61,367 bases of DNA from an uncultured Gammaproteobacteria bacterium (GCA_964356315.1 CAYHHA010000007.1:1-61367), one strand, 5' to 3'. Positions 1 to 60,476 are shown, numbered from the stretch's first letter. Notes: generated by a model not told the origin, from the letters alone. Numbers and translations: made by a program.

Positions 1-1
1 C

Positions 2-157
2 ATGCCGCCTCCTTTCGGAGTTGAAAATGGCACGACCCCAGTAAAAGAGACTTTGGTGGATTTCCTCTATTTCTGCATCAGAAAACTCGCGGTTAAACCG
101 TTTCTGAAAATATTCACGTATTTTATGTACTTGTTCTGTATCTGTTGATTGGTTCAC
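2..157 (-). CDS. Small hypothetical protein (partial, runs off the left edge), overlapping the ATG (3..1) of a downstream gene
   Basis: GTG at 157 opens MNQSTDTEQVHKIREYFQKRFNREFSDAEIEEIHQSLFYWGRAIFNSERRRH with no stop before the edge; its 3' end contains GAAAGGAGG 4 nt before ATG at 3..1. Not in the ORF track. Confidence 0.6.
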   Translation of the reverse strand, partial: MNQSTDTEQVHKIREYFQKRFNREFSDAEIEEIHQSLFYWGRAIFNSERRRH

Positions 158-185
158 GGAGAACGTGAACCTCTGGAAGATTTAG

Positions 186-235
186 GCACCAAAAAAACAA
201 CTATATCGTTGTTTTCTAAGTTATTTTTTTGTGCC
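186..235. repeat. Long imperfect inverted repeat upstream of the left-edge operon
   Basis: ggcaccaaaaaaacaact ... agttatttttttgtgcc; further hairpins at 151-171, 313-326 and 393-415. Confidence 0.6.
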
Positions 236-496: not shown

Positions 497-1108
497 ATGC
501 GTAATGAACCACTTGGTGTACCCTCCATTGAAACACTACCCTTTTTATCCCGCGAAAGTGGATTTATTACATATGATCCAACTAACCAACAAGTTGCAAC
601 ATGGTTAAAAGAAAACTGGACTTTTGGATATAACCCACTTGCTGTTTCAGAAGCAAACAGAACAAGACAGTTGCAACTTATCCACCCTGATGGACACACA
701 TATAATTACTATGAACCAGGTCATTCATTTGAACATTATAGAAAAAATGCTACGGGAAAAGAACCTCATTTTCTCGGGCATATCACACAAGTTGGCTGGG
801 TAGAATTAGCAATACGAAAAAACTCTGGACTAATCGGTAGTGAAGATAAAGGAATTTGGACCGCAGCATGGGATCCGCAACGATGGTTTCCAGGTTCTTT
901 CCCTAAAGATTTTGATTTTATAAATCCTCCAGATCGTTTTATAGAATTAGTATTTGATGCTGAAAAACTAAGACAACAAGGGTTAGTCGGATCAAAAGTT
1001 GAACCAATGGAGTATTACAAATTTAATACTCGAATACCAATGACAGCCCTTGTGGATACATCCTTGATGTATATTAATCAAGTTTTGGGATTAACAGTTC
1101 TAAACTAA
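497..1108 (+). CDS. Hypothetical protein, possible ADP-ribosyltransferase/Tpt1-like fold in the C-terminal half
   Basis: 203 aa; pattern GHIT...I...GL...IW...LVFD..KL...EY...RIP..AL. Confidence 0.55.
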   Translation: MRNEPLGVPSIETLPFLSRESGFITYDPTNQQVATWLKENWTFGYNPLAVSEANRTRQLQLIHPDGHTYNYYEPGHSFEHYRKNATGKEPHFLGHITQVGWVELAIRKNSGLIGSEDKGIWTAAWDPQRWFPGSFPKDFDFINPPDRFIELVFDAEKLRQQGLVGSKVEPMEYYKFNTRIPMTALVDTSLMYINQVLGLTVLN

Positions 1109-1149
1109 CCTAGAATTAGGTATGTTCCGATTTCGTCCCAGCACGTGTA
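1105..1149 (-). repeat. Boundary repeat family A, copy 1 (encodes YTCWDEIGTYLILG*)
   Basis: Homologous to 2445-2477 with mainly third-position differences. Confidence 0.75.
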
Positions 1150-1202
1150 CAAGCAAAGTGCACTCATAAGAAGAATTGATTACATATCAAACTTTATAGA
1201 TA

Positions 1203-2342
1203 TTACTCAAGCGATAAATCTATTACTTTTTCAATTGGAGCAATTACATGATCATTTCCCTGACTCCAACTATACTCAGAATTCGCAGGATTTGAATCCG
1301 GATATTGAGGAAAATCTAAAACAGTATATTCTGCAAATAATTTTTTTAACGTTGTGGCAATGATTGGCAAAGGAATGTCTTGATTTTCAGAGCGAATTTT
1401 CTGAACGACACCATGTATTGATTCTGATAAAAACCTGAACATGCGATCACTTGCTTCAGCTTCTGATTCTCCTTTTAGCTGTGCTGGAAATTCTGCAATT
1501 TTATGAAGATTTCCAAGAACTATCGCTGACGTTTCATTTGGTTTTACATTAGATCGTTTATAGTCAAGCATCGCTAGGCCAATTTTTGCATTTCTCATTG
1601 AAAGTCGTGCTGGATTATAGAGTATTGGTTTAGTAATATCCGCTATCATATTGATTAATGATGGAGCCGATTGTGTCACCTCTGTCTGCAAATTATTATT
1701 AAATATTGGTATTCGCAGTCCACTAACGGCAATTCCTGCTATAGCTGCCAAGCCAAATTTTAGAAATTGGCGTCTGGTCATAGGTACATTAAATAGACTT
1801 CTATTAGGATCATCTTGTGTACGCTCGGACAGAATTTTATACAGGAGTGAACCGGAAAATGCCGCAAGACCTGCTCCAACTGTTTCAATTCCATATGCTC
1901 TATTTAATTCACTACGTGCAAATGCATTCTGATCTATTGGTGGTTTAAATGATAAATCAATCTTCGATAGGATAGAAAAAACTTTATCCCACGACTGATG
2001 ATCGGTCAAAGAATTTCCCGAATCTTCGGTTATTTGTGGAATATCAGCACCTATGAGCCTAACTACTGATTCAGGAGCTTGAAAATGATTACTCTTTTCA
2101 GATGGGAAATATATATCCGCATAATTACTAAAAGATCCAGGACTTAGTGAGTCTGCGGCAATAATATTTGGCCTAGGATTGATTGATGCTATCGCCGATT
2201 GTACTTCGGTAGACCAAATGGTTCTGTTTAACGGAATATCACCTGTTGCATGTTCACCAAAAACTACATGAGTTGAATGAGTACCGTAAACTTCAGTTGT
2301 GCCTAAATTCAAATTCGATTCTTCACTTACTTGATCAAACAT
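1203..2342 (-). CDS. Hypothetical membrane protein with internal twin-arginine-like motif
   Basis: 379 aa; hydrophobic segment then MTRRQFLKFGLAAIAG mid-protein. Confidence 0.7.
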   Translation of the reverse strand: MFDQVSEESNLNLGTTEVYGTHSTHVVFGEHATGDIPLNRTIWSTEVQSAIASINPRPNIIAADSLSPGSFSNYADIYFPSEKSNHFQAPESVVRLIGADIPQITEDSGNSLTDHQSWDKVFSILSKIDLSFKPPIDQNAFARSELNRAYGIETVGAGLAAFSGSLLYKILSERTQDDPNRSLFNVPMTRRQFLKFGLAAIAGIAVSGLRIPIFNNNLQTEVTQSAPSLINMIADITKPILYNPARLSMRNAKIGLAMLDYKRSNVKPNETSAIVLGNLHKIAEFPAQLKGESEAEASDRMFRFLSESIHGVVQKIRSENQDIPLPIIATTLKKLFAEYTVLDFPQYPDSNPANSEYSWSQGNDHVIAPIEKVIDLSLE

Positions 2343-2414
2343 ACGTTCATATTACATTACAGGCATGAAATTTGTAATATATATTTCAGTATAGACATTC
2401 TAGTAATTTTTCTT

Positions 2415-2477
2415 TTAAATACATATTATTGATGTATTTGATGCTAAATACGTTCCAATAGCGTCCCAACAGGTGTA
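2415..2477 (-). repeat. Boundary repeat family A, copy 2 (encodes YTCWDAIGTYLASNTSIICI*)
   Basis: Homologous to 1117-1149. Confidence 0.75.
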
Positions 2478-2546
2478 TCTAAACTGACGCATACCAATTG
2501 AATAGTAATATAGCTTCATTCCAACAAAAACAAGCGTTCGAGATCC

Positions 2547-2577
2547 CATTTAGCCTCAATTTTAACTTGAGGCTAAA
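2547..2577. repeat. Perfect 12-bp inverted repeat with 7-bp spacer
   Basis: atttagcctcaa-ttttaac-ttgaggctaaat; the ttagcctcaa arm recurs near 3631, 4665 (inverted), 6518 and 10323. Confidence 0.8.
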
Positions 2578-2731
2578 TAACGAGACACCCCACCCTGTTT
2601 CGAACTAAAGTACAAAATCCGTCAAGAGTATCCATCGATCACATATGCCTTAATATTCATCTTCTACAAAGCAACCTATATCAGGTTTCAAAATAGTATT
2701 GTGGCGAATTACCATATTATATGGATTTATA

Positions 2732-2760
2732 TTGACTAATGTAGCACATTGTGCTACGAT
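2732..2760 (+). promoter_or_regulatory. Sigma70 promoter with overlapping palindromic operator for TA pair 1
   Basis: TTGACT-17-TACGAT; palindrome gtagcaca-t-tgtgctac at 2741-2757; ATG 7 nt downstream. Confidence 0.75.
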
Positions 2761-2767
2761 TTCTTAA

Positions 2768-3052
2768 ATGATATTTGTACGCAAACTCATTTGGGACACA
2801 TGGAATATACATCATATTGCAAAACATCATATATTACCGGATGAGATTGAAGAAATTTGTCATGGGTCACCATTAATATTACAAGGACAACAAAAGAAAC
2901 GTTTAGTTTTAATCGGCCTAACAGACGAGCAATCTATATTGACAGTTGTGCTTGAATCACAAGGACACGGAGTATACTACCCAATAACAGCATATCCATC
3001 AGATTCACATGACATTACATTATATAAACATTTAAAAGGAGGTAAAAAATGA
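2768..3052 (+). CDS. BrnT-family (DUF497) type II toxin
   Basis: 94 aa, WD..N..HI.KH.I...E.EE and YPITAY motifs. Confidence 0.85.
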   Translation: MIFVRKLIWDTWNIHHIAKHHILPDEIEEICHGSPLILQGQQKKRLVLIGLTDEQSILTVVLESQGHGVYYPITAYPSDSHDITLYKHLKGGKK

Positions 3053-3330
3053 AAACAAAAACTATTCAAAAAAGTAGAATTCCACAATTTGTAAATAGAC
3101 AAGAAGAGGCTAAGTTTTGGGAGAGTCATAGCATATCTGACTTTATAGACGAACTTAAGCCTGTCAATGTGCGTTTTGCTAAAAACCTATCTGAAGGTCT
3201 TCATATTCGATTGAACTCACAAACATTACAGACTCTTCGCGAAAAAGCGAAGAATAAAGGAATTGGCCCTACAACACTTGTTCGCATGTGGATATTGGAA
3301 CAACTCCAATCAGTGCAGCAGCAGATATAG
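3049..3330 (+). CDS. CopG/BrnA-type antitoxin
   Basis: IPQF...EEAKFWESHS and IRL...A..KGIG..TL.RMWI; ATGA overlap and GGAGG SD. Confidence 0.85.
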   Translation: MKTKTIQKSRIPQFVNRQEEAKFWESHSISDFIDELKPVNVRFAKNLSEGLHIRLNSQTLQTLREKAKNKGIGPTTLVRMWILEQLQSVQQQI

Positions 3331-3354
3331 AAATATTTAATGTTCTAACGAGTA

Positions 3355-3448
3355 TCAATCGTTTTCGACGACTTCGCTTTCGTTGTTAGATGCTTCTATT
3401 AACTTAGTTAAAAACTCAAAAACTGGTTCGAAATAAAATGCACTAGGG
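3355..3448 (-). repeat. Boundary repeat family B, copy 1 (24-bp core 3425-3448; encodes PSAFYFEPVFEFLTKLIEASNNESEVVEND*)
   Basis: ggttcgaaataaaatgcactaggg identical at 3425, 4614 and 6307. Confidence 0.85.
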
Positions 3449-3456
3449 GTACATAG

Positions 3457-3487
3457 GAAAAACGCTCAGAAAATCTGAGCGTTTTTC
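3457..3487. terminator. Bidirectional intrinsic terminator-like hairpin
   Basis: gaaaaacgctcaga-aaa-tctgagcgtttttc. Confidence 0.7.
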
Positions 3488-3497
3488 GTATATTCTA

Positions 3498-3602
3498 GTC
3501 GAATTTGGACCGGTCCCCGGTTCGCCGTCCAGCAGTAGACATTTTGATTCATAGAGAAATGTCGTATTGCTGGTGAGTGCCGAGAGTTCTCGGCAATCCG
3601 GC
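3498..3602 (+). ncRNA. Candidate structured RNA/ssDNA, copy 1
   Basis: Stems ccagcagta/tattgctgg, gacattt/aaatgtc, tgccgaga/tctcggca; pairing is conserved in the copy at 6381-6486. Confidence 0.45.
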
Positions 3603-3862
3603 TGGAGATACTAAACTTTGTTGATATGTATTAGCCTCAAGGTTGTGCAAAAACCCTGATGTGACTAGCCCTGCCCCCTGGCAGGCAGGTATTTCACACC
3701 CGGCGTGTGTAAGTGCAGTCATTAATAAATCAAATAAGCTGATATATCAACGAGAATAGGGTTTGATATGATCGAGCGATTTCAATCTATTCAGCCCCAA
3801 ACCCCAACCGGACTCGAACAAATATTTTTAAATACCCTTGATAATTATTCTATATTACTGTA

Positions 3863-3890
3863 TTGACAATCAATGTACAGATGATATTAT
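3863..3890 (+). promoter_or_regulatory. Sigma70 promoter of TA pair 2
   Basis: TTGACA-16-TATTAT with extended TG; ATG 6 nt downstream. Confidence 0.65.
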
Positions 3891-3896
3891 GCAGAT

Positions 3897-4205
3897 ATGG
3901 CTTTTCGTATTAAATTTAACGAGGAAAAAAACCAACTACTAAAAGCCACGAGAGGAGTTAGTTTCGATACTGTGATTATCTCTATCAAGGAAGGCGGATT
4001 GTTAGCTGATATTCATCATCCAAACCTAAAACACTCCAAACAAAAAATATACGTTATTGTGGTTGAAGAGTATGTATACGCTGTTCCATATGTAAAAAAC
4101 AATGAAAGAAAAGAAATTTTTCTAAAGACTGTCTACCCAAGCAGGGCATTAACCAAAAAATATTTGATGAAAGGAGGTAAATATGAAAAAAATAAATCCA
4201 AATGA
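3897..4205 (+). CDS. BrnT-like type II toxin
   Basis: FNEEKN.LLK..RG.SF...HPN...Y.Y.VPYV...IFLKT.YPSR. Confidence 0.85.
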   Translation: MAFRIKFNEEKNQLLKATRGVSFDTVIISIKEGGLLADIHHPNLKHSKQKIYVIVVEEYVYAVPYVKNNERKEIFLKTVYPSRALTKKYLMKGGKYEKNKSK

Positions 4206-4494
4206 TTTATTCACTAATATATATTTAGATGCAGAAGAGAAATCTTTAGAAACAGCATTTGAAAATGATGAATTTGAAGAGGATTCTGATTTTCTTAACA
4301 CGAAGACTATGCTTGAAGAGGCTGCAAAGAATTACTTGGAATTAAATACGGCAAAACCGATTACTATTCGAGTAAATCAATTTGACCTCATTAAGGTAAA
4401 GGCGAGAGCGAAACGGAAACAAATTCCATACCAAACACTACTTGGATCCTTAATTCATCAATATGCTGAAGGAAAACAAGACGTAAGTTTATAA
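4183..4494 (+). CDS. CopG/RHH-type antitoxin
   Basis: ITIRV...DL..VK..A....IPYQTL..S.IHQY; GGAGG SD. Confidence 0.85.
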   Translation: MKKINPNDLFTNIYLDAEEKSLETAFENDEFEEDSDFLNTKTMLEEAAKNYLELNTAKPITIRVNQFDLIKVKARAKRKQIPYQTLLGSLIHQYAEGKQDVSL

Positions 4495-4549
4495 GATTTA
4501 AGTATTTTTTGATCCTAACACTTTTAGTGATAGACGGAGTAAGCAATAA

Positions 4550-4637
4550 TCAATCAGTTTCCAACATAGCTTTTTGGTATTCTTCCATTAATTTACCTAA
4601 CCATTCAAGCACAGGTTCGAAATAAAATGCACTAGGG
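4550..4637 (-). repeat. Boundary repeat family B, copy 2 (encodes PSAFYFEPVLEWLGKLMEEYQKAMLETD*)
   Basis: 24-bp core at 4614-4637; extended match ccatt(c/g)aagcaca to copy 3. Confidence 0.85.
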
Positions 4638-4771
4638 GCACTGAAACTGACGCACACTAATTTATTGAGGCTAATTACATTAGTTTATGGATTCTAATTC
4701 CATAATTTAGTCAATATTTATGCATTTAAAATCTATAACCTATCATCACGGAGTGCAAAAGACTAATTTGG

Positions 4772-5446
4772 ATGACTAAACATGCACTTGACACGTTTCT
4801 AATTACTCCTGATAATAGACAGTATATGGAAACGTATTCGCGTATTGCTTTGAGCAATCTTCTTGTTTCATCCCCGTTGAGATTATTTGACCTCACCACC
4901 TTAAAGCAGACACTCAATATCCGAAGTGAAAGTGCTTTCTACCGTATCCTAAATCAATTTGTATCAGAGAAGGTATTAGCAATCGTGAAGCCTGGCGTCT
5001 ACTACAAAGTGAATACCCCACCTGATCAGTACGAAATTGCCAACTATCTTATCCGACCTTCGTATATCTCATTCGAAACTGCTCTGAATCACCACGGTAT
5101 TTTACCTCAATTCCCTCTCATTACTACATCAGCAACAACGCAAAAAACTCAAAAGAAAACAGTGTTCAATGGCGATTACACCTATACCCATCTCTCTCCA
5201 AAAATGTTTTTTGGCTTCAAAAAATATTCAGAACATCTCTTGGCTGAACCAGAAAAATGCCTGATAGACTACGTATATCTACGGATGAAACTCGGCACGA
5301 AACCAGATATGAATGAGTGGGATTTTGAACACGTTGATACCAAAAAGCTTTCCCTCTATTTAACATACATGGAGGATGTCAAAGGATATCAATCCGTAGT
5401 TAAAATTATTTCAGAACAAACACCATGTTTACCAACGACGAAATAA
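4772..5446 (+). CDS. Type IV TA AbiEi-family antitoxin (true start may be 4826)
   Basis: wHTH N-terminus, PSYISFETAL.HHG and AEPEK.L.DY motifs. Confidence 0.85.
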   Translation: MTKHALDTFLITPDNRQYMETYSRIALSNLLVSSPLRLFDLTTLKQTLNIRSESAFYRILNQFVSEKVLAIVKPGVYYKVNTPPDQYEIANYLIRPSYISFETALNHHGILPQFPLITTSATTQKTQKKTVFNGDYTYTHLSPKMFFGFKKYSEHLLAEPEKCLIDYVYLRMKLGTKPDMNEWDFEHVDTKKLSLYLTYMEDVKGYQSVVKIISEQTPCLPTTK

Positions 5447-6204
5447 CCAAGCGCGCCAATAAAGTGCAGATCAGCCCGGTTGTAATTTACCGTGAATTTG
5501 CACAGTTATTGTTTCTTGAACGCTTATCACAGTCAAAAATGAATGCAAACTTCATTTTTAAAGGCGGTACTGCCATTAGACTTCTCATGAAAGGCGATCG
5601 CTTTTCTGAAGATCTTGATTTTACTGTTACAGACCTCACAAGCGATCAGGTCGTTTATATATGCACATCTCTTGTCAGACAAATGAATTCCGAAGTAACC
5701 GTATCGATGAAATCTACTCCTTCACCATCAGGTCTTTCGCTCAAATTATATATTGCAGCACCATTTCAAAAACAAACCATACCTATCAAGCTAGACTTCT
5801 CATTCCGTGAAATTTCAATTGATGTAATTCATAGCACAATTATTTGCGATTATCCGATCATTTTCCGAAATCTGTGTTATTACTATTCACCTCGTGAAAT
5901 GATTGCTGAAAAAGTTCGTGCCCTTTTACACCGTCAGAAGGGTCGTGATCTCTACGATCTGTGGTTCTTGCTTTCCATGCAGGCGGAATTTGATGAACAG
6001 TTGATCGCGAAAAAATTAGCATACTATTCAGAAACTTTTTCAAAATTAGAATTCATTGAAAAAATACAAAGTTTTCCGAAGAAAGATTTCGTTGCGGATC
6101 TACTTCCCTTCATTGGTAAAAAAGAACGAGATTCTCTTGATACCCTCTACGGGGTCATTCAGTCGTATCTCATGCAAAAATTAAATGAAGTAACTGCAAA
6201 ATAA
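5425..6204 (+). CDS. AbiEii/AbiGii nucleotidyltransferase toxin
   Basis: FKGGTAIRL, RFSEDLDF, AEK.RA, RDLYDL. Confidence 0.9.
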   Translation: MFTNDEITKRANKVQISPVVIYREFAQLLFLERLSQSKMNANFIFKGGTAIRLLMKGDRFSEDLDFTVTDLTSDQVVYICTSLVRQMNSEVTVSMKSTPSPSGLSLKLYIAAPFQKQTIPIKLDFSFREISIDVIHSTIICDYPIIFRNLCYYYSPREMIAEKVRALLHRQKGRDLYDLWFLLSMQAEFDEQLIAKKLAYYSETFSKLEFIEKIQSFPKKDFVADLLPFIGKKERDSLDTLYGVIQSYLMQKLNEVTAK

Positions 6205-6267
6205 GATATAATCATCACAGAGGACTAGCAATCCTTTTTAGATTACATTAACTGCCTCAGATTTGTT

Positions 6268-6330
6268 CTAATATACTTCTATTAACTCATCCACCATTGA
6301 AGCACAGGTTCGAAATAAAATGCACTAGGG
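6268..6330 (-). repeat. Boundary repeat family B, copy 3 (PSAFYFEPVLQW, then after a 1-nt shift DELIEVY*)
   Basis: 24-bp core at 6307-6330. Confidence 0.8.
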
Positions 6331-6588
6331 ATACTGTATAAATAATCTCGCATCATAGCGGGATTTTTTATGCACTCTCGGTGGGATTTGGACAGGCTTA
6401 CCGGTTCGCAGTCCAGCGGTAGATAATTCGATTCCCAGAGAATTGTCGTACTGCTGGTGAGTGCCGAGTGCGCTCGACAATCTGGCTTGGGGGGGGGTAC
6501 AAATTTAGTTGAAACAATTAGCCTCAAATATCCCGATGTTTCTAGCCCTGCCTGCCGACAGGCAGGTATTTCACACACGGTGTGTGTA
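6307..6588. repeat. ~290-bp composite non-coding element, copy 2
   Basis: Colinear with 3425-3712; right part nearly identical to 10320-10391. Confidence 0.85.
6381..6486 (+). ncRNA. Candidate structured RNA/ssDNA, copy 2
   Basis: Stems ccagcggta/tactgctgg, gataattc/gaattgtc, tgccgag/ctcgaca. Confidence 0.45.
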
Positions 6589-6596
6589 ATAATGTA

Positions 6597-8612
6597 TTAC
6601 TTGGAATTAAGCTCACTACTTTTGGATGCAGGTTCTGTAGTTAATAACAGTTTAATATCTTTTATAATCGTCAAAATATCTTCTGAATCCTCATCGGATG
6701 TATAGTATATTTGGTCACCATTTTTCTGAACCTGCTCATAAATACCCTTCCCATATTGCTTAACAAATAAATCTTTAACTATCGACTCCTTCTTATTGAA
6801 ATACGATTCAATTATCTCTTCTTTAGGAAATCGATTAGCTAGCAACGAAACAACTTCTAAAAGCTCTGGATAACCATCATACTTTGGATTTGAAAAGATT
6901 AATGATTGTGATTTTAATAATTTAGCTAGTAGTTCAGAAGTCAAGAAATCCGTAATACCTTCATTTAAAAATTTTGGGTATGATCTTTCTGAGTAATACG
7001 TTCTGAAGTGGAGCATCTCATGTAATAAAGTATGGATATAATAAGACATTCTATATTCCTGTCCGGGATAGAGTTTAATATATATATTGTTTGGTGAATC
7101 AAAGACTCCAGCCTGAATTTCAGGTGTTACAGGATCTTTCAGAAAATTTGAGTATGATCTTTGCCATGCAGCCAAATTCAAATTCCATTTTGGCCTAACG
7201 TCTATGTACTCTTTAAGATAACTTTCGCTTTGGTTCTTATCTGAAATTATCTGGCGTAGGCTGTTTTCAATCGTTTGTTTCCCCTCCCTGCAAATAGATT
7301 CATCCTTTCCTAGGTTTGATTCACAAGCAGATATCCAACCCTTTCCATAGGATTCGTATTTACGATACTCTCCATCAGAAGCGCTAATAGCGTTTTTCAA
7401 ATCTATAATCGAATTATCAATTTCTTTTATAGTGTTGCGTACATCTTGTATTCCATACAACAAACTATTCTCTATTTCTTTTTCTTTCTTCTTTTGCACG
7501 AGGATGTACTCATCGACTGGAAGAAATGATACTATTGGCTTTTTTAAAGATTTGTTTAAATAGTCTTTATAGTTGGAGTCTAGTAACTTACTAGCGAGAA
7601 CTATGGATAATTTTTCAATTGTGATGTTGCTTGGATTATTTGAAATTAAAGTATGCGATGGAAACAATAAGACTTCAAATTTAACTTTTTCTTTTAACGA
7701 AGCTGACTCTGACGCATAAAGTAGGCTTGGAATAATTACAGAACGATATAATGTATCTTTATCCGTATGTGAAATCTTCTTATATTGCAATACGACTTCG
7801 GTAACTGGGTCGTATTCAAAAAATGCCGGAATCGCTAGTTCCTTTTCTATAGCTTCACTAATACCTTGAATCGATTCAATTATACCTACCTTAGATCTTT
7901 CCTCTGAAGAGGATAATATATCAATTGAGGTAATAATTTCTTGATTTGCTTGTTTAGTTAACCCAAATATTACGTAAGTTGGAACGTAAGAATAGAGTGC
8001 AAATATTATAACTGGGTAGGCTTGTTGAATTAGTAAAAATATTAATAAAAATCTTTTTGCTACCACCCTCCGTAATTTGTAAATAACCCACAGAGAAAAA
8101 GCCACACTAAAGACCAGAAGCAGCGCTATAAAAATCCCGTCGTATCCACAAAAGGACCAAGAGCTCGTACTTAATGAACAAGTAAATTTCTGTAATAGCA
8201 AAGAAGTTGGGTTAGTTATGAATGAGTCAGCGACATCAAAAAGTTTACTTGTAATCGCAAAATTCCACTTCTGATTATATGATACCCAGAGTGATCCAGC
8301 CGTGCAAATTGAAAATATAGCCAAATATGCTAAATATCGTAAATTAAAAAACAGTTGCAGCACTGCATTCCTGAGGCTATATTTTTTTGCGTTCTTGACC
8401 TTTTTTTTACGTTTAGAACGTAAAGGGGATGTTGCGTGTTTATGTTTTTTACGTAAAAAATAGTAAATAGTTGATAAACCAAAAAAAGGCAAAAACCAAA
8501 GGAGTGAACTAAATGATTTATTAATAATTGACTGAACAATTCCGCCAAAACCCACACCTATTATAATTGCTACTACCAGTAGAGTAATACCTTTTATAAT
8601 TAGATTAATCAT
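6597..8612 (-). CDS. Polytopic membrane protein with coiled coil and C-terminal zincin metallopeptidase domain
   Basis: Several N-terminal TM segments; HTLLHEMLH...FLNEGITD. Confidence 0.75.
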   Translation of the reverse strand: MINLIIKGITLLVVAIIIGVGFGGIVQSIINKSFSSLLWFLPFFGLSTIYYFLRKKHKHATSPLRSKRKKKVKNAKKYSLRNAVLQLFFNLRYLAYLAIFSICTAGSLWVSYNQKWNFAITSKLFDVADSFITNPTSLLLQKFTCSLSTSSWSFCGYDGIFIALLLVFSVAFSLWVIYKLRRVVAKRFLLIFLLIQQAYPVIIFALYSYVPTYVIFGLTKQANQEIITSIDILSSSEERSKVGIIESIQGISEAIEKELAIPAFFEYDPVTEVVLQYKKISHTDKDTLYRSVIIPSLLYASESASLKEKVKFEVLLFPSHTLISNNPSNITIEKLSIVLASKLLDSNYKDYLNKSLKKPIVSFLPVDEYILVQKKKEKEIENSLLYGIQDVRNTIKEIDNSIIDLKNAISASDGEYRKYESYGKGWISACESNLGKDESICREGKQTIENSLRQIISDKNQSESYLKEYIDVRPKWNLNLAAWQRSYSNFLKDPVTPEIQAGVFDSPNNIYIKLYPGQEYRMSYYIHTLLHEMLHFRTYYSERSYPKFLNEGITDFLTSELLAKLLKSQSLIFSNPKYDGYPELLEVVSLLANRFPKEEIIESYFNKKESIVKDLFVKQYGKGIYEQVQKNGDQIYYTSDEDSEDILTIIKDIKLLLTTEPASKSSELNSK

Positions 8613-8640
8613 ATCGGCTATCTAGATCTGATTTCACAGA

Positions 8641-8916
8641 TTACAATCCTATTCCAACTGGCAAATTCTGTTGATCTGATGAGTTTGTAGGATATTTCTC
8701 ATAAAGAGATGACACGTAACCACTTATATCATCTCTCCATTTGGTGAATTCAGTTTTCCACTGTTCTTGTGATGCATTACTTTTCTCTAAAGTAGCGGTT
8801 TCTGTTCGATGAAGATTACGGAAGTATATGAATGAAGCTATTACTCCGATACAAGAAAGAGTCGATAGTAGAAGGCTAATAAATACCAGCGTTTTTAACA
8901 TGTGCTTAACGATCAA
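8641..8916 (-). CDS. Small membrane-anchored hypothetical protein (start may be 8901)
   Basis: N-terminal hydrophobic helix; co-oriented 28 bp upstream of the zincin gene. Confidence 0.6.
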   Translation of the reverse strand: MIVKHMLKTLVFISLLLSTLSCIGVIASFIYFRNLHRTETATLEKSNASQEQWKTEFTKWRDDISGYVSSLYEKYPTNSSDQQNLPVGIGL

Positions 8917-8986
8917 TCTAGCAATCGAAATACAGTCTCCGATTTGACTTTAATTAGTATTGTACTCCTAATATTGAATCAATGAT

Positions 8987-9027
8987 AATATGTTCTGAAT
9001 ATGTTCTGAATATGTTCTGAATATGTT
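8987..9027. repeat. Tandem 11-mer (aatatgttctg) x3.7
   Basis: Direct reading. Confidence 0.9.
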
Positions 9028-9434
9028 AAATCGAATACATTTGGATGTGTATATATGGATACACATGACGAGATATGCTCATGTTTTCCTACTGTCTCAC
9101 AGCATGCACAAGGCTAATCACTCAAGATGTAGCTTTAGCCGTTTTGTATTGATTCTTACTCTCAGTCTAGATAAGAAACCTCATTTGATTTATGCCATTG
9201 CAATGGCATAAACGAATTACTGAGGATTATAGAGTCTGTACCTGCAAAAGAAGGATGGAGGAAATCAACAGATCAAGAATATAAATTTTGCTTAAGAGAT
9301 AATGGCTTATAAATTTGTTTATCGGTATGAAATATGCTACAGTAAGAGTGTAAGAGGGCCTCAGAAAACTTCAATTCTTCAGTTAATAAATTCCCAAGGT
9401 TTGAGTAGATAATTACGAAAGGAGGTGAACAAAT

Positions 9435-9653
9435 ATGAATGCATTTTCAGAAGCAAAATTTATTCGTTTTGAAGACAAAGTCTTTTTTGTAGACTTAACT
9501 ACATTTAGTAAGCCTGGAGGAAAATCTGTTTTCTTAATAATTTTCCCTGATGGATCAGGCCGTCCAGCTAAAGGGTCAGATGGGCCTATGATGGATATAT
9601 TATTTTCGGGTAGATCCTTTGATACTGCAAAGGAGGCGTTTGATGCTTCCTGA
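9435..9653 (+). CDS. Small hypothetical protein
   Basis: 72 aa with strong SD gaaaggaggtg. Confidence 0.65.
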   Translation: MNAFSEAKFIRFEDKVFFVDLTTFSKPGGKSVFLIIFPDGSGRPAKGSDGPMMDILFSGRSFDTAKEAFDAS

Positions 9654-9727
9654 GTTTTGATTGATGGTCAACCAGACAGTCATGCCATATAAAGAAGTAA
9701 TTGCAGTTACAATAGAAAGATACAAAT

Positions 9728-10441
9728 ATGATATATACAACCCTTATTCATAAGGCAATTCAATTTGCCATAAAAACCCATGAGCTTGACGCTAAGCAGA
9801 GAAGAAAAGGAACAGATGTTCCTTATGTTACTCACCCACTAACGGTCGGAATAATTCTTAGCCGTGTAACGGATGATGAAAATATCATTGCAGCTGGTAT
9901 ACTCCACGACACCATTGAAGACTGCGAACCATATGGGACTACCACAAAAGAGATGATCACAGAGAAGTTTAATAGTGAGATAGCGCAAATGGTTGATGAT
10001 GTGACGGAGCAGGATAAGACCCTCTCATGGATGGAACGAAAATTAGCAGCATTTGAACATATCAAACACATGAATCATGGATCACTACTCGTGAAGTCAG
10101 CTGATGTGCTTCACAATCTGACTGAGCTAAATGATGATGTTGCCACGAATGGAATTAGTGTATTTAGTAAATTTAATGCCTCTCAGGAGGATACGATCCA
10201 AAGATACCAAAAGCTTATTCCTGAAATCCAAAACACTTGGATTGAAAATCCGATATGCGATGATTTGCGCATTGCACTTGAGACGCTTATTAAAGCTACA
10301 TTACCGCCAAAGAATGTATCAATTAGCCTCAAATATCCCGATGTTTCTAGCCCTGCCTGCCGGCAGGCAGGTATTTCACCCCAGGTGTGTACTAGTATTT
10401 GCTTTGCCAAAAACGCCATATTGAGCATAAATATTCTTTGA
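9728..10441 (+). CDS. HD-domain protein, Mesh1/small alarmone hydrolase-like, with repeat-derived C-terminus
   Basis: Q.RKG...PY..HP..V, AGILHDTIED, LVKSAD.LHNL. Confidence 0.85.
   Translation: MIYTTLIHKAIQFAIKTHELDAKQRRKGTDVPYVTHPLTVGIILSRVTDDENIIAAGILHDTIEDCEPYGTTTKEMITEKFNSEIAQMVDDVTEQDKTLSWMERKLAAFEHIKHMNHGSLLVKSADVLHNLTELNDDVATNGISVFSKFNASQEDTIQRYQKLIPEIQNTWIENPICDDLRIALETLIKATLPPKNVSISLKYPDVSSPACRQAGISPQVCTSICFAKNAILSINIL
10320..10391. repeat. Partial composite element, copy 3, with CCTGCCTGCCGGCAGGCAGG palindrome
   Basis: Near-identical to 6515-6587; lies inside the HD ORF. Confidence 0.85.
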
Positions 10442-10636
10442 GGCGACGGCTCAAACAACTCATTCCAGAGCTGTATTGTGCCTAAATATATTGAAAATGA
10501 GCAAAAGATGACAATAAATGCTATAATGCAACTACAGAAAGGAGACATTGTAGGTATCTATACTACGTTGCCTCTCTAGCTTTACAGCAAGAGTGAGTCT
10601 TTGTATTCAAGGAATATTTACAATTTAAAAAATACT

Positions 10637-12441: not shown

Positions 12442-12720
12442 CTATTTGGTGGTTTCCAGAAGCTTTTTGGATAATGCAAGGATAGAATCTGCCCATTTTG
12501 CGCGATCCATATCTCCTGCTTTATATTCCTTCTCTAGTTTTTCATAAGAGGTACAAAATTTTGAAAATTCTGAAGAAAATGCAGGAGGCAATGGGAATGT
12601 CAAAAGCGCATTCACATTTTTTCGGGTAAGCTCTAAAAATAACTCTATCCGTACCTGTTCCTGTGTAAAACACGTGCGAGTCCACTCCCCGATTTGGTTG
12701 AGGTTTTCTGCGGTGTCCAA
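12442..12720 (-). CDS. Hypothetical protein
   Basis: 92 aa ORF filling the intergenic space; start uncertain. Confidence 0.55.
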   Translation of the reverse strand: MDTAENLNQIGEWTRTCFTQEQVRIELFLELTRKNVNALLTFPLPPAFSSEFSKFCTSYEKLEKEYKAGDMDRAKWADSILALSKKLLETTK

Positions 12721-12854
12721 AACCAGATCTCTCTGATTTTTTTCTGAATAATTGCTGATAGAGGGTTGTTGTATTATCTGTCTATTCTACCATTTTTTTA
12801 TAAGATATTCAAACAGACATTAAGATTGATAGAACGTGATATAATATTTCCCAT

Positions 12855-13745
12855 ATGAAAACAAAAGGGACATTTACTATAAAATCTGGACTTGCTCAAA
12901 TGATCAGAGGTGGCGTCATCATGGACGTCGTCAATGCAAAACAAGCCGAAATCGCTGAAAAAGCAGGAGCAGTGGCTGTTATGGCGCTTGAAAGAGTTCC
13001 GTCCGATATTCGTGCAGATGGCGGAGTTGCCCGCATGAGCGACCCTTCTAAGATCAAAGAAATCCAACTAGCCGTCACCATACCCGTCATGGCGAAATGT
13101 CGCATTGGACATTTTGTTGAAGCGCAAATCCTCGAAGCGCTCGGAGTAGATTTCATAGATGAGAGTGAAGTGCTCACTCCTGCTGATGATCAGTTTCATA
13201 TAGACAAATCCCCGTTTACTGTACCATTCGTTTGTGGATGTCGCGATTTGGGCGAGGCGCTGCGACGCATCCATGAGGGAGCGGCGATGATACGAACAAA
13301 AGGTGAAGCCGGCAGTGGAAACATCGTTGAAGCTGTTAGACACATTCGATCTGTAGATGCTGGGATGAAAGAGATCACAGAATTATATGCAAAAAAACAA
13401 ACCGCAAAGCTTAAAGCGATAGCGCTCTCCTACTGTGTTCCATACGAACTTGTGTTGAAAACTGCGCAACTCGGCAGACTTCCTGTCGTCAACTTTGCAG
13501 CAGGAGGCGTCGCAACTCCAGCTGATGCCGCGCTGTGCATGCAACTCGGCGTAGACGGTGTTTTTGTAGGATCCGGTATTTTCAAAAGCAGTAATCCGGA
13601 AAAATACGCAAAAGCAGTCGTGGATGCGGTAGCTCATTTTACCGATGCAAAAGAAATTGCCAGAGTCAGTGAAAATCTTGGTGGAGCGATGAAAGGCTTG
13701 GAAATCGCTGCCCTTGAAACAAAAATGGCATCCAGAGGCATATAA
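12855..13745 (+). CDS. pdxS: Pyridoxal 5'-phosphate synthase lyase subunit
   Basis: [28 protein letters not shown]. Confidence 0.97.
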
Positions 13746-13756
13746 CTTCACGAAGT

Positions 13757-14347
13757 ATGGACTTAACGATCGGCGTTTTATCGTTTCATGGTGATGTATT
13801 GGAACACATACAGGCAACCATGAGAGCTGCGGAAAAACTTCACACACCCGTAACGGTTATCCCTGTCCGGACAAAGGAAGCGCTTTCAAAAGTCGCTGGG
13901 CTAATTTTACCTGGAGGCGAAAGTACAACAATGCATAAATTATGTGTTCGGGAAGGAATGTGGGAGCAAATGAAATCGATCCCGTTTATTTTTGGCACAT
14001 GTGCAGGCGCCATAATGCTCGCAAAAAAAATTCTTCATAAAGCGGAAGGTCAGGAATCACTCGAGAGAATAGGGATAGATATAGATAGAAATGCATATGG
14101 AAGACAAACTGATTCGTTTCAGGAGATACTTTCCACAACGCTCGGAGAAGTAACCGCAGTCTATATCCGCGCCCCAAAAATAGTATCCATCAAACCATCT
14201 ATTACAATTTTTGCAGGCACAAACGAAAACGTTCTCGCTTGCGAAGAAATCTCAGACGGTCTCTATAATCTTGCTACCTGTTTTCACCCAGAACTCACAA
14301 CCACCCTGTTTCATGAATATTTTCTGAAAAAAATTATTAACTCATAA
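13757..14347 (+). CDS. pdxT: PLP synthase glutaminase subunit
   Basis: PGGEST, GTCAG, RNAYGRQ, FHPE. Confidence 0.95.
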   Translation: MDLTIGVLSFHGDVLEHIQATMRAAEKLHTPVTVIPVRTKEALSKVAGLILPGGESTTMHKLCVREGMWEQMKSIPFIFGTCAGAIMLAKKILHKAEGQESLERIGIDIDRNAYGRQTDSFQEILSTTLGEVTAVYIRAPKIVSIKPSITIFAGTNENVLACEEISDGLYNLATCFHPELTTTLFHEYFLKKIINS

Positions 14348-37489: not shown

Positions 37490-38557
37490 ATGACTTATAT
37501 AAAGCGTAGTATTCTTTTTTTGATGTGTGCTATAACGGTATATCGATGCTTTTATTTTGACTGGAATAGACCTGCCGAAAGATGGGATGAGCAAACAAAT
37601 ATTGATGTTATCAACAAGTCATCAAAAATAAAACAATTTCCCCAGCTTTTTTATGGAAATAAACCATTTTTTGAAAAACCACCTATTTGGTATATGCTTT
37701 CTGTGATTGTTTCTCGAGCAATTCATGCACCGACACTCCAGATTATCAGATTGTTTAGTGCCACATGCGGATTTATTACCATTTTAGTAGTTTGGTATAT
37801 TTCTGTGCGCTGGTGGGGATTTACGTCAGGAGTATTGTCTTGGGTAATCCTACTATCTACAAATCATTTATTTTTAACTAATCCAGCAGGGGTATTTTCG
37901 ACACATACACTTCGCTCTGCGGACTCTGAGGGATTTTTTATACTGTGTATTGTTCTTTCTAGTATTGTGTCAACAAAAATAGGATATTCAAACATCTCTG
38001 CTATAGCGTCTGGGATTTTAACTGGACTGGCTATTCTTTCAAAAAGTCCCATTGGAATCATTCCTTTGCTCTGCGCTACGTGCTATATCCTTTTCCAAAG
38101 AAATAACTCCACAGCAATAAAACAGGCTATCATAGCTTGGTGTTTTGCTCTTTGTATGTATGCGTTATGGGTTCTCTATATGTCTAAAATATACGGGTTT
38201 ACGTTTCTAAATACCTTTTTTTACTATCATTTATTTCTTCGGGCTTCCACCCCGCTTGAGTCTCATAATCAATCATTGTTTTATTATTTCAGACTTCTTT
38301 TTTCCAAAGAATTATTTGTATTTATGGAACTCTATATTTTATCTCTCGTGATATACATGCGATCGAGCTCACTTCGATCAAATATTCAACTTGCAAATAT
38401 TTTCAGTATTTCAATATGTTTTATAGTCATCCCAACACTTGTACAAACAAAGCTTGCCTGGTATATATTTCCGTTCTACCCATTTGCTGCACTTCTGATA
38501 GCCGGTACAGTCACTCCATACCTATCATTCAGGGCATTTTCAGGAAAGCGCGTATAA
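37490..38557 (+). CDS. ArnT/PMT-family (GT-C) glycosyltransferase
   Basis: WDE, FEKPP, LSK, TKLAWY..P.YP. Confidence 0.85.
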   Translation: MTYIKRSILFLMCAITVYRCFYFDWNRPAERWDEQTNIDVINKSSKIKQFPQLFYGNKPFFEKPPIWYMLSVIVSRAIHAPTLQIIRLFSATCGFITILVVWYISVRWWGFTSGVLSWVILLSTNHLFLTNPAGVFSTHTLRSADSEGFFILCIVLSSIVSTKIGYSNISAIASGILTGLAILSKSPIGIIPLLCATCYILFQRNNSTAIKQAIIAWCFALCMYALWVLYMSKIYGFTFLNTFFYYHLFLRASTPLESHNQSLFYYFRLLFSKELFVFMELYILSLVIYMRSSSLRSNIQLANIFSISICFIVIPTLVQTKLAWYIFPFYPFAALLIAGTVTPYLSFRAFSGKRV

Positions 38558-60107: not shown

Positions 60108-60476
60108 TGCGGGATCGTATTTCATACTGAGCAAAGCTGCGAGATCGTACTGTGTCCCTCGAAGCCCGAAGGGCGAAGTGGGATAATGGTAGACGTCCCG
60201 CTGAGCGGGATTATCTAGGTTCATTGAAAATATACATATGTTAGCAAAGTTGCGGGATCGTATAATGGTAGTACGCATCCCTCTGGAGGATGTTATCTAG
60301 GTTCGAGTCCTAGTCCCGCAGCTTTGCCAATATTTTGGTGCCGATAGCAGTACATCGTCCTAGTCCCGCAGCTTTGCTCAGTAATAATAGTAGTACGTCC
60401 CGCTAAGCGGGATTATCTAGGTTCGCCCGCCTGCATCGCTTTGCGAAGCAAATCGGGAAGGAGTCCTAGTCCCGCA
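60108..60476 (+). pseudogene. Two split, degenerate tRNA-Gln copies nested around the intact gene
   Basis: Fragments at 60108-60120, 60138-60222, 60357-60370 and 60384-60476 match parts of 60251-60321. Confidence 0.8.
60251..60321 (+). tRNA. tRNA-Gln (anticodon CTG), no encoded CCA
   Basis: Acceptor TGCGGGA/TCCCGCA, anticodon arm CATCC-ctCTGga-GGATG, T arm CTAGG-TTCGAGT-CCTAG. Confidence 0.95.

Follow-up and report, generated by a model that had tools for sequence, protein, structure and literature searches.

What are the short repeats that close the cassettes of a toxin–antitoxin (TA) and defence array in an uncultured Gammaproteobacteria bacterium, and to which gene do they belong? The stretch under study (61,367 nt, GCA_964356315.1, CAYHHA010000007.1:1-61367) is contig C7 of genome G000 from the first base of the contig, and is called here the window. 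Near its left end, cargo genes are separated by five repeats, for which the original prediction had proposed that they are orphan C-terminal tails of a recombinase, each marking an attR-like end, and that integration changes the C terminus of that recombinase. Our analysis upholds this core and gives it a target. With a probability of roughly three in four, elements encoding a large serine recombinase (LSR) built an island at the 3′ end of a tRNA-Glu(CTC) gene, of which this region forms the right-hand part, and the repeats, or tails, are the P-arm halves of attR sites. Neither the tRNA-Glu target nor the native flank of the site, a terminator followed by a module that we call X, had been recognized before.

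Peptide tails at the cassette boundaries

Two A tails (1117-1149 and 2445-2477) were retrieved by tblastn with the minus-strand peptides, and three B tails (3390-3452, 4579-4641 and 6272-6334) by repeat search; the latter share an identical 24-nt core. All five repeats lie where they had been predicted, with junctions within 3 nt of the points then given, and all five indeed read as short peptides on the minus strand, running leftward into a stop. Homology ends exactly at a GTA junction in every copy (the position of its A is given in Table 1), and the sequence that follows differs from tail to tail. B1 and B3 sit in a longer repeat of ~320 nt, made of the tail, a terminator hairpin, module X and a module Y resembling repetitive extragenic palindromic (REP) elements; around the two tails this repeat is 72% alike over 344 nt.

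The same genome holds seven A-like copies: the two of the array, one at window 38414-38452 (minus strand), one on contig C15 and three on contig C24 (15556-15588, 17052-17084 and 17250-17282), with peptides such as L-Y-K-C-W-D-D-Y-K-T-Y-stop. A1 is 97% identical over 34 nt to the copy on C15. Variation among the seven has a period of three and falls mostly on third codon positions, the threonine being written with all four ACN codons. Among six B-type tails (the three of the array and three from metagenome loci), differences at codon positions 1, 2 and 3 number 40, 46 and 108, counted over 15 pairs that are not independent of one another. Judged from these patterns, the tails are, or were, coding. 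They do not belong to longer reading frames where they stand: A-like tails across the order are orphans in 28 of 28 cases, with 0-84 open codons upstream, and all 16 B-like loci have only 3-35. Some copies begin with ATG or GTG, and no start codon is consistent among them.

The A motif is found in 18 of the 87 genomes of the order, and a reversed control pattern in none. At five A-like tail loci whose surroundings were inspected (C15 and genomes G021, G019, G080 and G002), a tRNA-Glu gene was near (5/5). The exact core of the B tail has no match in genome_contigs, and with up to three mismatches it occurs in 3 of 401 genomes of the class, G000 among them; the B2 peptide finds only weak matches in the 87 genomes of the order (E 0.006-0.04). 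Viral contigs gave no match either to the B core pattern or to a pattern joining the tryptophan codon to the A tail.

Codon-periodic conservation, together with the copies that start with ATG or GTG, would also be expected if the tails had been moved away from the 3′ end of a host gene, itself protein-coding and the target of insertion, or if they were small peptide genes in their own right. We find this barely credible. There is no parent gene in the genome, the start is not consistent and the upstream frames are open for only 0-84 codons. Moreover, the tails occur at several loci and in 18/87 genomes, the five A-like loci inspected lie near tRNA-Glu, and the A motif is the C terminus of three LSR homologues themselves (see below). 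Four other candidates were considered and rejected: a transfer-messenger RNA or pseudo-tRNA for the B tail, which has no T-stem; attC-like hairpins; precursors of ribosomally synthesized and post-translationally modified peptides; and orphan modules of polymorphic toxins, which would be followed by their cargo, whereas here the cargo runs towards the tails.

The recombinase, its target tRNA and the junction

A minus-strand serine recombinase had been expected to the left of the window, and two copies of it were found. The first lies in a complete paralogous element on C15, whose order is tRNA-Glu(TTC), LSR (499 amino acids (aa), minus strand), Rep, a small open reading frame (ORF), cargo, A tail, terminator and X; window 1-189 is 90% identical to C15:31402-31590, and the peptide of window 2-157 is 79% identical to the small ORF of C15. 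The C15 LSR matches the Pfam families Resolvase (PF00239, E 3.5e-14) and Recombinase (PF07508, E 9e-11), with a zinc ribbon (Zn_ribbon_recom, PF13408) below the cut-off (E 4e-4), and its Rep is of rolling-circle type (PF23343, REP_ORF2-G2P). The A tail of this element lies ~3.9 kb to the right of the LSR end, past one cargo gene, and is followed by the terminator and X module. The second copy stands at the extreme end of contig C12, where tRNA-Glu(CTC) is followed by the 3′ end of an LSR gene; its 38 encoded residues all agree (100%) with those of P0001, an LSR of 489 aa that is itself 95% identical to the C15 copy. Homology with C15 suggests that the C12 end, ~2.5 kb of collapsed LSR and Rep sequence and the start of C7 are likely one locus. 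Only this one LSR copy is associated with the island of the window.

Two observations concern the surroundings of these genes. On C12, a 109-aa ORF (L034 9687-10016) lies just upstream of tRNA-Glu(CTC), its sequence extending into the 5′ end of the tRNA gene; genomes G020 and G021 lack it at this place (query 743-1100 unmatched), and by eye it resembles a GIY-YIG-type nuclease. Contig C22 (~12488-13915, minus strand) carries a third LSR paralogue, 27-28% identical, which also reads into an antisense tRNA and is followed by a masked run of N.

Neither of the two LSR copies has a stop codon inside its element. Both share the P′ arm and end, within the element, on the same codons (…G-E-F-R-D-W), and their frames then enter the tRNA gene, where one stops past Y-P and the other 12 codons past the W; the last 42 bases of the C15 gene lie inside tRNA-Glu(TTC), antisense. 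Comparison with same-genus genomes shows what the site looks like before insertion. The occupied genes (L034 10002-10078 and L031 8984-9060) were set beside the empty tRNA-Glu(TTC) of G020 and tRNA-Glu(CTC) of G021 (L043 and L045), which read …GGGGTA|C, an A-rich stretch and a terminator; this flank has its homologue to the right of the attR on C15. Because the empty sites share the junction there, the crossover is placed at or beside GTAC. Indeed, when attL and attR of C15 are compared with the empty attB of G020 and G021, GTA(C) is all that is common at the junction. The attP form is seen only as a junction of B arm and P′ arm in a metagenome locus, L065. We also observed that the empty tRNA-Glu genes of relatives have no encoded CCA (…GTAC-AA…), and that insertion of the element supplies it.

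The antisense of the supplied CCA is TGG, the conserved tryptophan codon of the LSR. The next codon, TAC, is the tyrosine of the LSR (…R-D-W-Y) and, as TAC or TAT, the tyrosine of the A tails (L-Y-T-C-W-D…), whose motif past the junction is Y-T-C-W-D-x-I-G-T-Y. Since TAC is in the same phase in LSR and A tail, a rejoined P arm would continue the LSR frame into the tail. The fusion of recombinase and tail that had been proposed thus holds for A, which is in phase at the crossover, and fails for B, where the joined frame stops after two codons. A second complete element, on contig C4 of genome G068, has the same phase as C15: its tail at 158077 is followed by three cargo ORFs, Rep and an LSR (161285-162769, 53% identical) that reads into tRNA-Glu(TTC).

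A further indication comes from the geometry of the half-sites. We right-aligned the arms at the junction, using left arms only. The distance from the junction to the start of a GTTC motif is 21 nt in the tRNA-Glu arms (2/2) and 26 nt in A1, A2, the C15 tail, B1, B2 and B3 (6/6). According to Rutherford et al. (2013, PMC3783163), the motif bound by the zinc-ribbon domain of the LI/A118 integrase is shifted 5 bp toward the centre in attB relative to attP, and the same shift is found in most other LSR systems. Measured in this way, both tail classes have the published attP-versus-attB geometry.

These data can be assembled into a model. The elements would be small and integrative, consisting of an LSR, a rolling-circle Rep, a small ORF and one to three cargo genes. 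The LSR would have its attP within its own last codons and no stop inside the element, so that in the integrated state its frame would run into the antisense strand of the tRNA and add a few residues encoded there before ending. The P arm, which is the remaining half of attP, would then close the opposite end of the element as attR and form the tail. A-class P arms would encode the native LSR C terminus in frame, and this C terminus would be regained only when P arm and LSR 3′ end are rejoined, either in the excised circle or beside the tail of another element. B-class P arms would copy the acceptor end of tRNA-Glu(CTC), and the same LSR would stop there after Y-P.

To assess how general this arrangement is, we surveyed the 120 best LSR homologues with crude C-terminal patterns. 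They bear names of the Candidate Phyla Radiation (CPR), such as Gottesman-, Woese-, Dojka- and Moranbacteria. An antisense T-loop signature (D[SL][ND]) was present in the last 45 residues of 77 of them. Three (P0021, P0026 and P0040) carry an A-like tail directly past the tryptophan as their C terminus (pattern W-x3-[WV]-[DN]-x-[IVY]-[GRK]-T-Y), which is what had been sought: proteins that end in the tail peptides exist for A. For B none was found among proteins of at least 78 aa; searches for longer proteins bearing the B tail in a set of 5.8 billion gave 3 and 2 candidates at this size, none of which scored. LSR matches occur in 33 of the 81 genomes of the family. We examined 30 LSR loci from genomes of the family at the DNA level, three of which run off the contig, leaving 27 with a complete 3′ end. 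The LSR stop was within an antisense tRNA, or no more than 60 nt from one, in 20 of the 27, and ten kinds of tRNA are targeted (Glu, Ser, Gly, Gln, Trp, Leu, Lys, Thr, Val and Pro). One LSR (L123) has a long tail of its own, and the 1.2 kb around it hold no tRNA. In G115, G385, G016 and G057, the LSR and the B-like tail are on different contigs.

The B arm and the origin of the array

L065, a 13-kb contig without tRNA, encodes a 489-aa LSR (78% identical) beside its Rep, and there a B arm abuts a P′ arm identical to that of both attL sites of G000. Since it abuts the same P′ arm, the B arm belongs to the recombinase system of the A arms. Beside the junction the B arm copies ten bases of the acceptor end of tRNA-Glu(CTC), and its core contains two blocks identical to the T-loop and acceptor end of that tRNA. 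Direct repeats of this kind, lying in islands at a tRNA gene, would also be left by tyrosine integrases, the peptide reading then being incidental. This is very improbable here: no tyrosine recombinase occurs on C7 or the C12 end, every copy has 5 bp more between the two blocks than the tRNA has, the A tail does not copy a tRNA, the variation is codon-periodic and the B arm of L065 abuts the 3′ end of an LSR gene. The genome has five tyrosine recombinases, all elsewhere, and no PF00589 match was obtained on C7 or the C12 end.

The frame of the L065 LSR ends Y-P-stop (TAC CCC TAG). Two readings can be given for the B peptide. It may be added by a +1 slip on the CCC before TAG, which is a known kind of shifty site. 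Alternatively, it may be in frame with an unsampled LSR lineage of another codon phase. LSR lineages in other phases exist: G020 has, at the same tRNA-Glu(CTC), an LSR that reads in the frame …V-P-L-A-G-F-E-P…. We observed that this protein (L047 120-1682, G020:C1) is a different LSR of 520 aa; it matches the same three Pfam families (PF00239, PF07508 and PF13408) and heads an 18-kb island with other cargo.

Under our reading, the five stacked tails, with a cargo cassette ending at each, would record serial integrations or captures at one site. The resident LSR, with a putative directionality factor, could pair attL with several of the attR-like ends and so release circles that differ in cargo. 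If an inner tail were used, cassettes without an LSR would stay in the chromosome; if an outer one were used, neighbouring units and any chromosomal flank captured with them would travel to a new host. One could go further and suppose that the LSR senses its own integration state through its C terminus, which A would complete in frame and B by a programmed +1 frameshift at CCC-TAG adding the conserved, helical B peptide of 28-30 residues, while the stacked ends would let one LSR excise circles of different length, gaining or losing adjacent defence and TA cassettes. We put this forward as speculation, and consider it unlikely.

The flanks of the tails bear on how the stack arose. To the right of A1 there is an eight-base match to the flank of tRNA-Glu(TTC). 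Right of B1 and B3 stand terminator, X and Y, the first two in the order found downstream of tRNA-Glu in the empty site of G021 and on C15. A 19-nt motif (2481-2499 and 4644-4662), right of A2 and B2, is found nowhere else in the genome. Comparable structures exist elsewhere: on contig C3 of G019 (L106 3253-11360), next to tRNA-Glu(CTC), 8 kb of sequence hold four A-like tails on the same strand, and tblastn detected neither an LSR nor a Rep homologue in this array, and G021 (~330 nt) and G080 (~650 nt) each have one short LSR-less unit extending from tRNA-Glu to an A tail.

The array could be the wreck of complete LSR-Rep elements once lined up in tandem, which lost their recombinase modules by ordinary deletion, so that the tails are dead scars and A1 alone is functional. 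A single LSR copy tied to the island, the shortened B3 tail and the LSR-less array of G019 with its four tails all fit this, and the terminator, X and Y copies are only 72% alike, from which it follows that the events are old. Against it, the three B copies keep one and the same 24-nt core although their flanks have diverged; random deletions would not stop homology exactly at GTA in every copy, and LSR or Rep remnants are absent to the right of any internal tail. We regard such decay as possible, at clearly less than even odds. The short units of G021 and G080, the left-end motif that the A2 and B2 cassettes share in the same register, and the half-site geometry common to A and B arms would instead suit mini-elements without LSR, made of cargo and a complete attP, which the resident LSR mobilizes in trans and inserts singly in the manner of integron cassettes. 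This we consider unlikely. The left end of each cassette lacks any P′-arm-like sequence, neither a circular cassette nor, with two patterns, a match in viral contigs was seen, and insertion beside an occupied tRNA would need recombination between attP and attL.

Assembled contigs of four sequencing runs (all Logan contigs, from which starts, ends and rare junctions are not recoverable) were compared with the window. Several excision end points had been predicted, and none was seen in these contigs. The one large joint, from 1157 to 6419, is the C15 paralogue, with loose ends that match C15. Another, from 3402 to 5899, was disregarded, with only 22 letters on one side. Contigs of run X5, from another study, share with the window only 2445-2476, the A2 tail, and diverge on both sides; this fits tails acting as portable junctions, and the contigs may come from other organisms. 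Gaps in the cover by X5 and X6 do not show that the sequence is absent there.

A number of results speak against the reading we favour. The link between C12 and C7 is drawn from homology with C15, with no assembly across it. Forty-one of the 120 homologues fall in neither C-terminal class, many of them stopping a few codons past the tryptophan, and 7 of the 27 complete loci have a stop of their own and no tRNA within 60 nt. The crossover is placed only to GTAC, and inspection of the P′ arm by eye gave no convincing mirror of the GTTC motif. The conserved B peptide is in the +1 frame of the L065 LSR, and that frame has a stop nine codons upstream; no protein of at least 78 aa contains words from two versions of the B tail. 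There is no tRNA near the A-like tails of C24 (15 kb) or of window 38414-38452 (the sole tRNA of the window is at 60251); such distant tails may be old scars or secondary sites. The right flanks of the internal junctions are not LSR 3′ remnants, and the rules of LSR recombination, as set out in PMC3783163, exclude attP × attL; taken together, these two points leave simple tandem accretion unexplained. No directionality factor was identified; the one candidate examined, the small ORF, has no Pfam family. Finally, no circular junction or empty-site joint was present among the assembled contigs of the runs.

The features of the region are collected in Table 1. The cargo labels given before (AbiEii, a BrnT-like toxin and two CopG-type antitoxins) are borne out by Pfam. 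The extent is not: the repeats do lie within the predicted bounds of 1105-6588, but the variable island goes on to about 10505. Synteny with G020 is back only at 10514, and the variable island is therefore larger than had been reported.

Table 1. Features of the left part of the window, in order of position.
Feature	Position	Strand	Junction A	Remarks
Small ORF heading the element's operon (order small ORF, Rep, LSR), 5′ part	2-157	-		Cut short by the start of the contig; without Pfam family match
Cargo ORF, 203 aa, cassette a	497-1108	+		From ORF list; no Pfam family
A1 tail, predicted P-type half-site of an attR-type junction	1105-1149	-	1149	LSR C-terminal motif and stop
Cargo ORF, 379 aa, cassette b	1203-2342	-		Weak twin-arginine translocation (TAT) signal match only (Pfam)
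A2 tail, predicted P-type half-site	2415-2477	-	2477	
Right-flank motif	2481-2499	+		Common to 4644-4662, same register past the junction
TA pair 1	2768-3330	+		BrnT-like toxin 2768-3052; CopG-type antitoxin 3049-3330; PF04365 below cut-off (E 5e-4), PF12441 E 1.2e-12
B1 tail, predicted P-type half-site mimicking the tRNA-Glu(CTC) acceptor end	3355-3451	-	3451	Conserved 30-codon peptide, frame f2
Native-type flank, copy 1	3453-3712	+		Terminator hairpin 3453-3491; X module 3517-3610; REP-like Y module 3648-3712
TA pair 2	3897-4494	+		102-aa ORF without assigned family; weak CopG-type antitoxin 4183-4494 (Pfam)
B2 tail, predicted P-type half-site	4550-4640	-	4640	28-codon peptide
AbiE-type pair	4772-6204	+		224-aa ORF 4772-5446, without Pfam match, overlapping AbiEii toxin 5425-6204 (PF08843, E 8e-31)
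B3 tail, predicted P-type half-site	6282-6333	-	6333	Shortened 15-codon peptide
Native-type flank, copy 2	6335-6589	+		Terminator 6335-6375; X module 6401-6499; Y module 6525-6589
Remainder of the variable island	6597-10505			671-aa and 91-aa minus-strand ORFs; 1-kb repeat with HD-domain gene; third Y 10320-10390

Module X, about 90 nt long with two hairpins, belongs to the native downstream flank of tRNA-Glu and has a further copy on C15 (L031 12997-13085). It ends in a second stretch like the tRNA-Glu 3′ end followed by GTAC, resembling an unoccupied secondary attB. A consensus fold of the three G000 copies and the G021 flank gave two hairpins, with double changes at 2 of 22 pairs and a poorly aligned G021 row. 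Module Y is a REP-like, GC-rich hairpin pair that is dispersed through the genome, with another copy at C10:46089-46152 and short pieces on C38, C60, C11 and C17. On C15, X and a partial Y adjoin an IS200-like Y1 transposase gene (L031 13114-13794, PF01797). Rfam reported only a tRNA-Gln at 60251 in the whole window at the gathering threshold, and chance-level matches only in 1000-6800 with E up to 10; X and Y therefore match no described RNA family. Further right, window 9333-10323 (1 kb) is 90% identical, in inverted orientation, to C6:14137-15125, and overlaps an HD-domain gene (9728-10441) whose 3′ end enters the third Y copy.

Comparison with known systems

The arrangement described here points to a widespread family of bacterial serine recombinases in which the logic of a site within the recombinase's own gene operates in a milder form, a gap in existing descriptions. 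We found no description of an LSR frame spanning attP, or of such elements in CPR bacteria, in a literature search whose coverage leaves out most subscription journals. An LSR frame open into an antisense tRNA, paired with an orphan tail, provides a rule for finding both ends of an element in metagenome-assembled genomes; it accounts for short orphan-peptide repeats beside tRNA-Glu and for contig breaks at such elements, and it yields naturally occurring pairs of attP and attB in which the half-site geometry can be read. Should the tail govern how active or how stable the LSR is, it would be a built-in switch of directionality or state. If stacked tails are used, they would give small genomes a route to shuffle defence and TA cargo; and if dual completion and variable circles both hold, the system would be a serine-recombinase counterpart of the integron in CPR bacteria.

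The likeness to integrons, which the original prediction had drawn as an accretion system without attC sites, stands as an analogy only. As in integrons and in tandem tRNA islands, cargo is stacked at one site, each unit is closed by a copy of the recombination site, and TA and abortive-infection genes abound. Here, however, C7 and the C12 end hold no IntI-type recombinase and no attI or attC hairpin site was seen: among the 25 longest pairs no inverted repeat falls within any tail, and only the terminators by B1 and B3 are palindromic. Tandem tRNA islands repeat duplications of the tRNA, whereas the repeated sites of this array are half-sites of a serine recombinase.

SSV1-type integrases also target tRNA genes, and mycobacteriophage BPs has an integrase of the tyrosine recombinase class. 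According to a 2021 review (PMC8371274), integrases of the SSV1 type have their recombination site inside their own gene, so that integration alters the gene, and recombinases of this kind are known exclusively in archaea and are tyrosine recombinases only. The site inside the recombinase gene is a feature of our elements too. The SSV1-type enzyme, however, is a tyrosine recombinase split into two large parts, whereas here the enzyme is a bacterial serine recombinase, of CPR type by the names of its homologues, that loses only its last roughly 11-30 codons. For BPs, PMC4557955 describes an attP inside a coding gene whose integrated and free forms differ in C terminus and in behaviour; the gene there is the repressor and the lost tail an ssrA-like degron, whereas here it is the recombinase itself.

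The enzyme itself belongs with the LSRs of phages and integrative elements. Those of phiC31, Bxb1 and A118/LI have the same architecture of Resolvase, Recombinase and zinc-ribbon domains, their attP and attB are equally short with a crossover at a few common bases, and, according to PMC3783163, the distal motif of attP lies 5 bp more to the outside than that of attB, which is also the case here. The elements of this family differ from them in that the LSR frame meets no stop within the element and holds attP in its final codons, by which integration swaps C-terminal residues for antisense-tRNA codons. They also differ in targeting tRNA 3′ ends, in having a rolling-circle Rep as partner gene, and in orphan P arms that pile up in arrays with defence and TA cargo. 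The recombinase described here is a member of the LSR family, and neither an SSV1-type integrase nor an immunity system of the BPs type.

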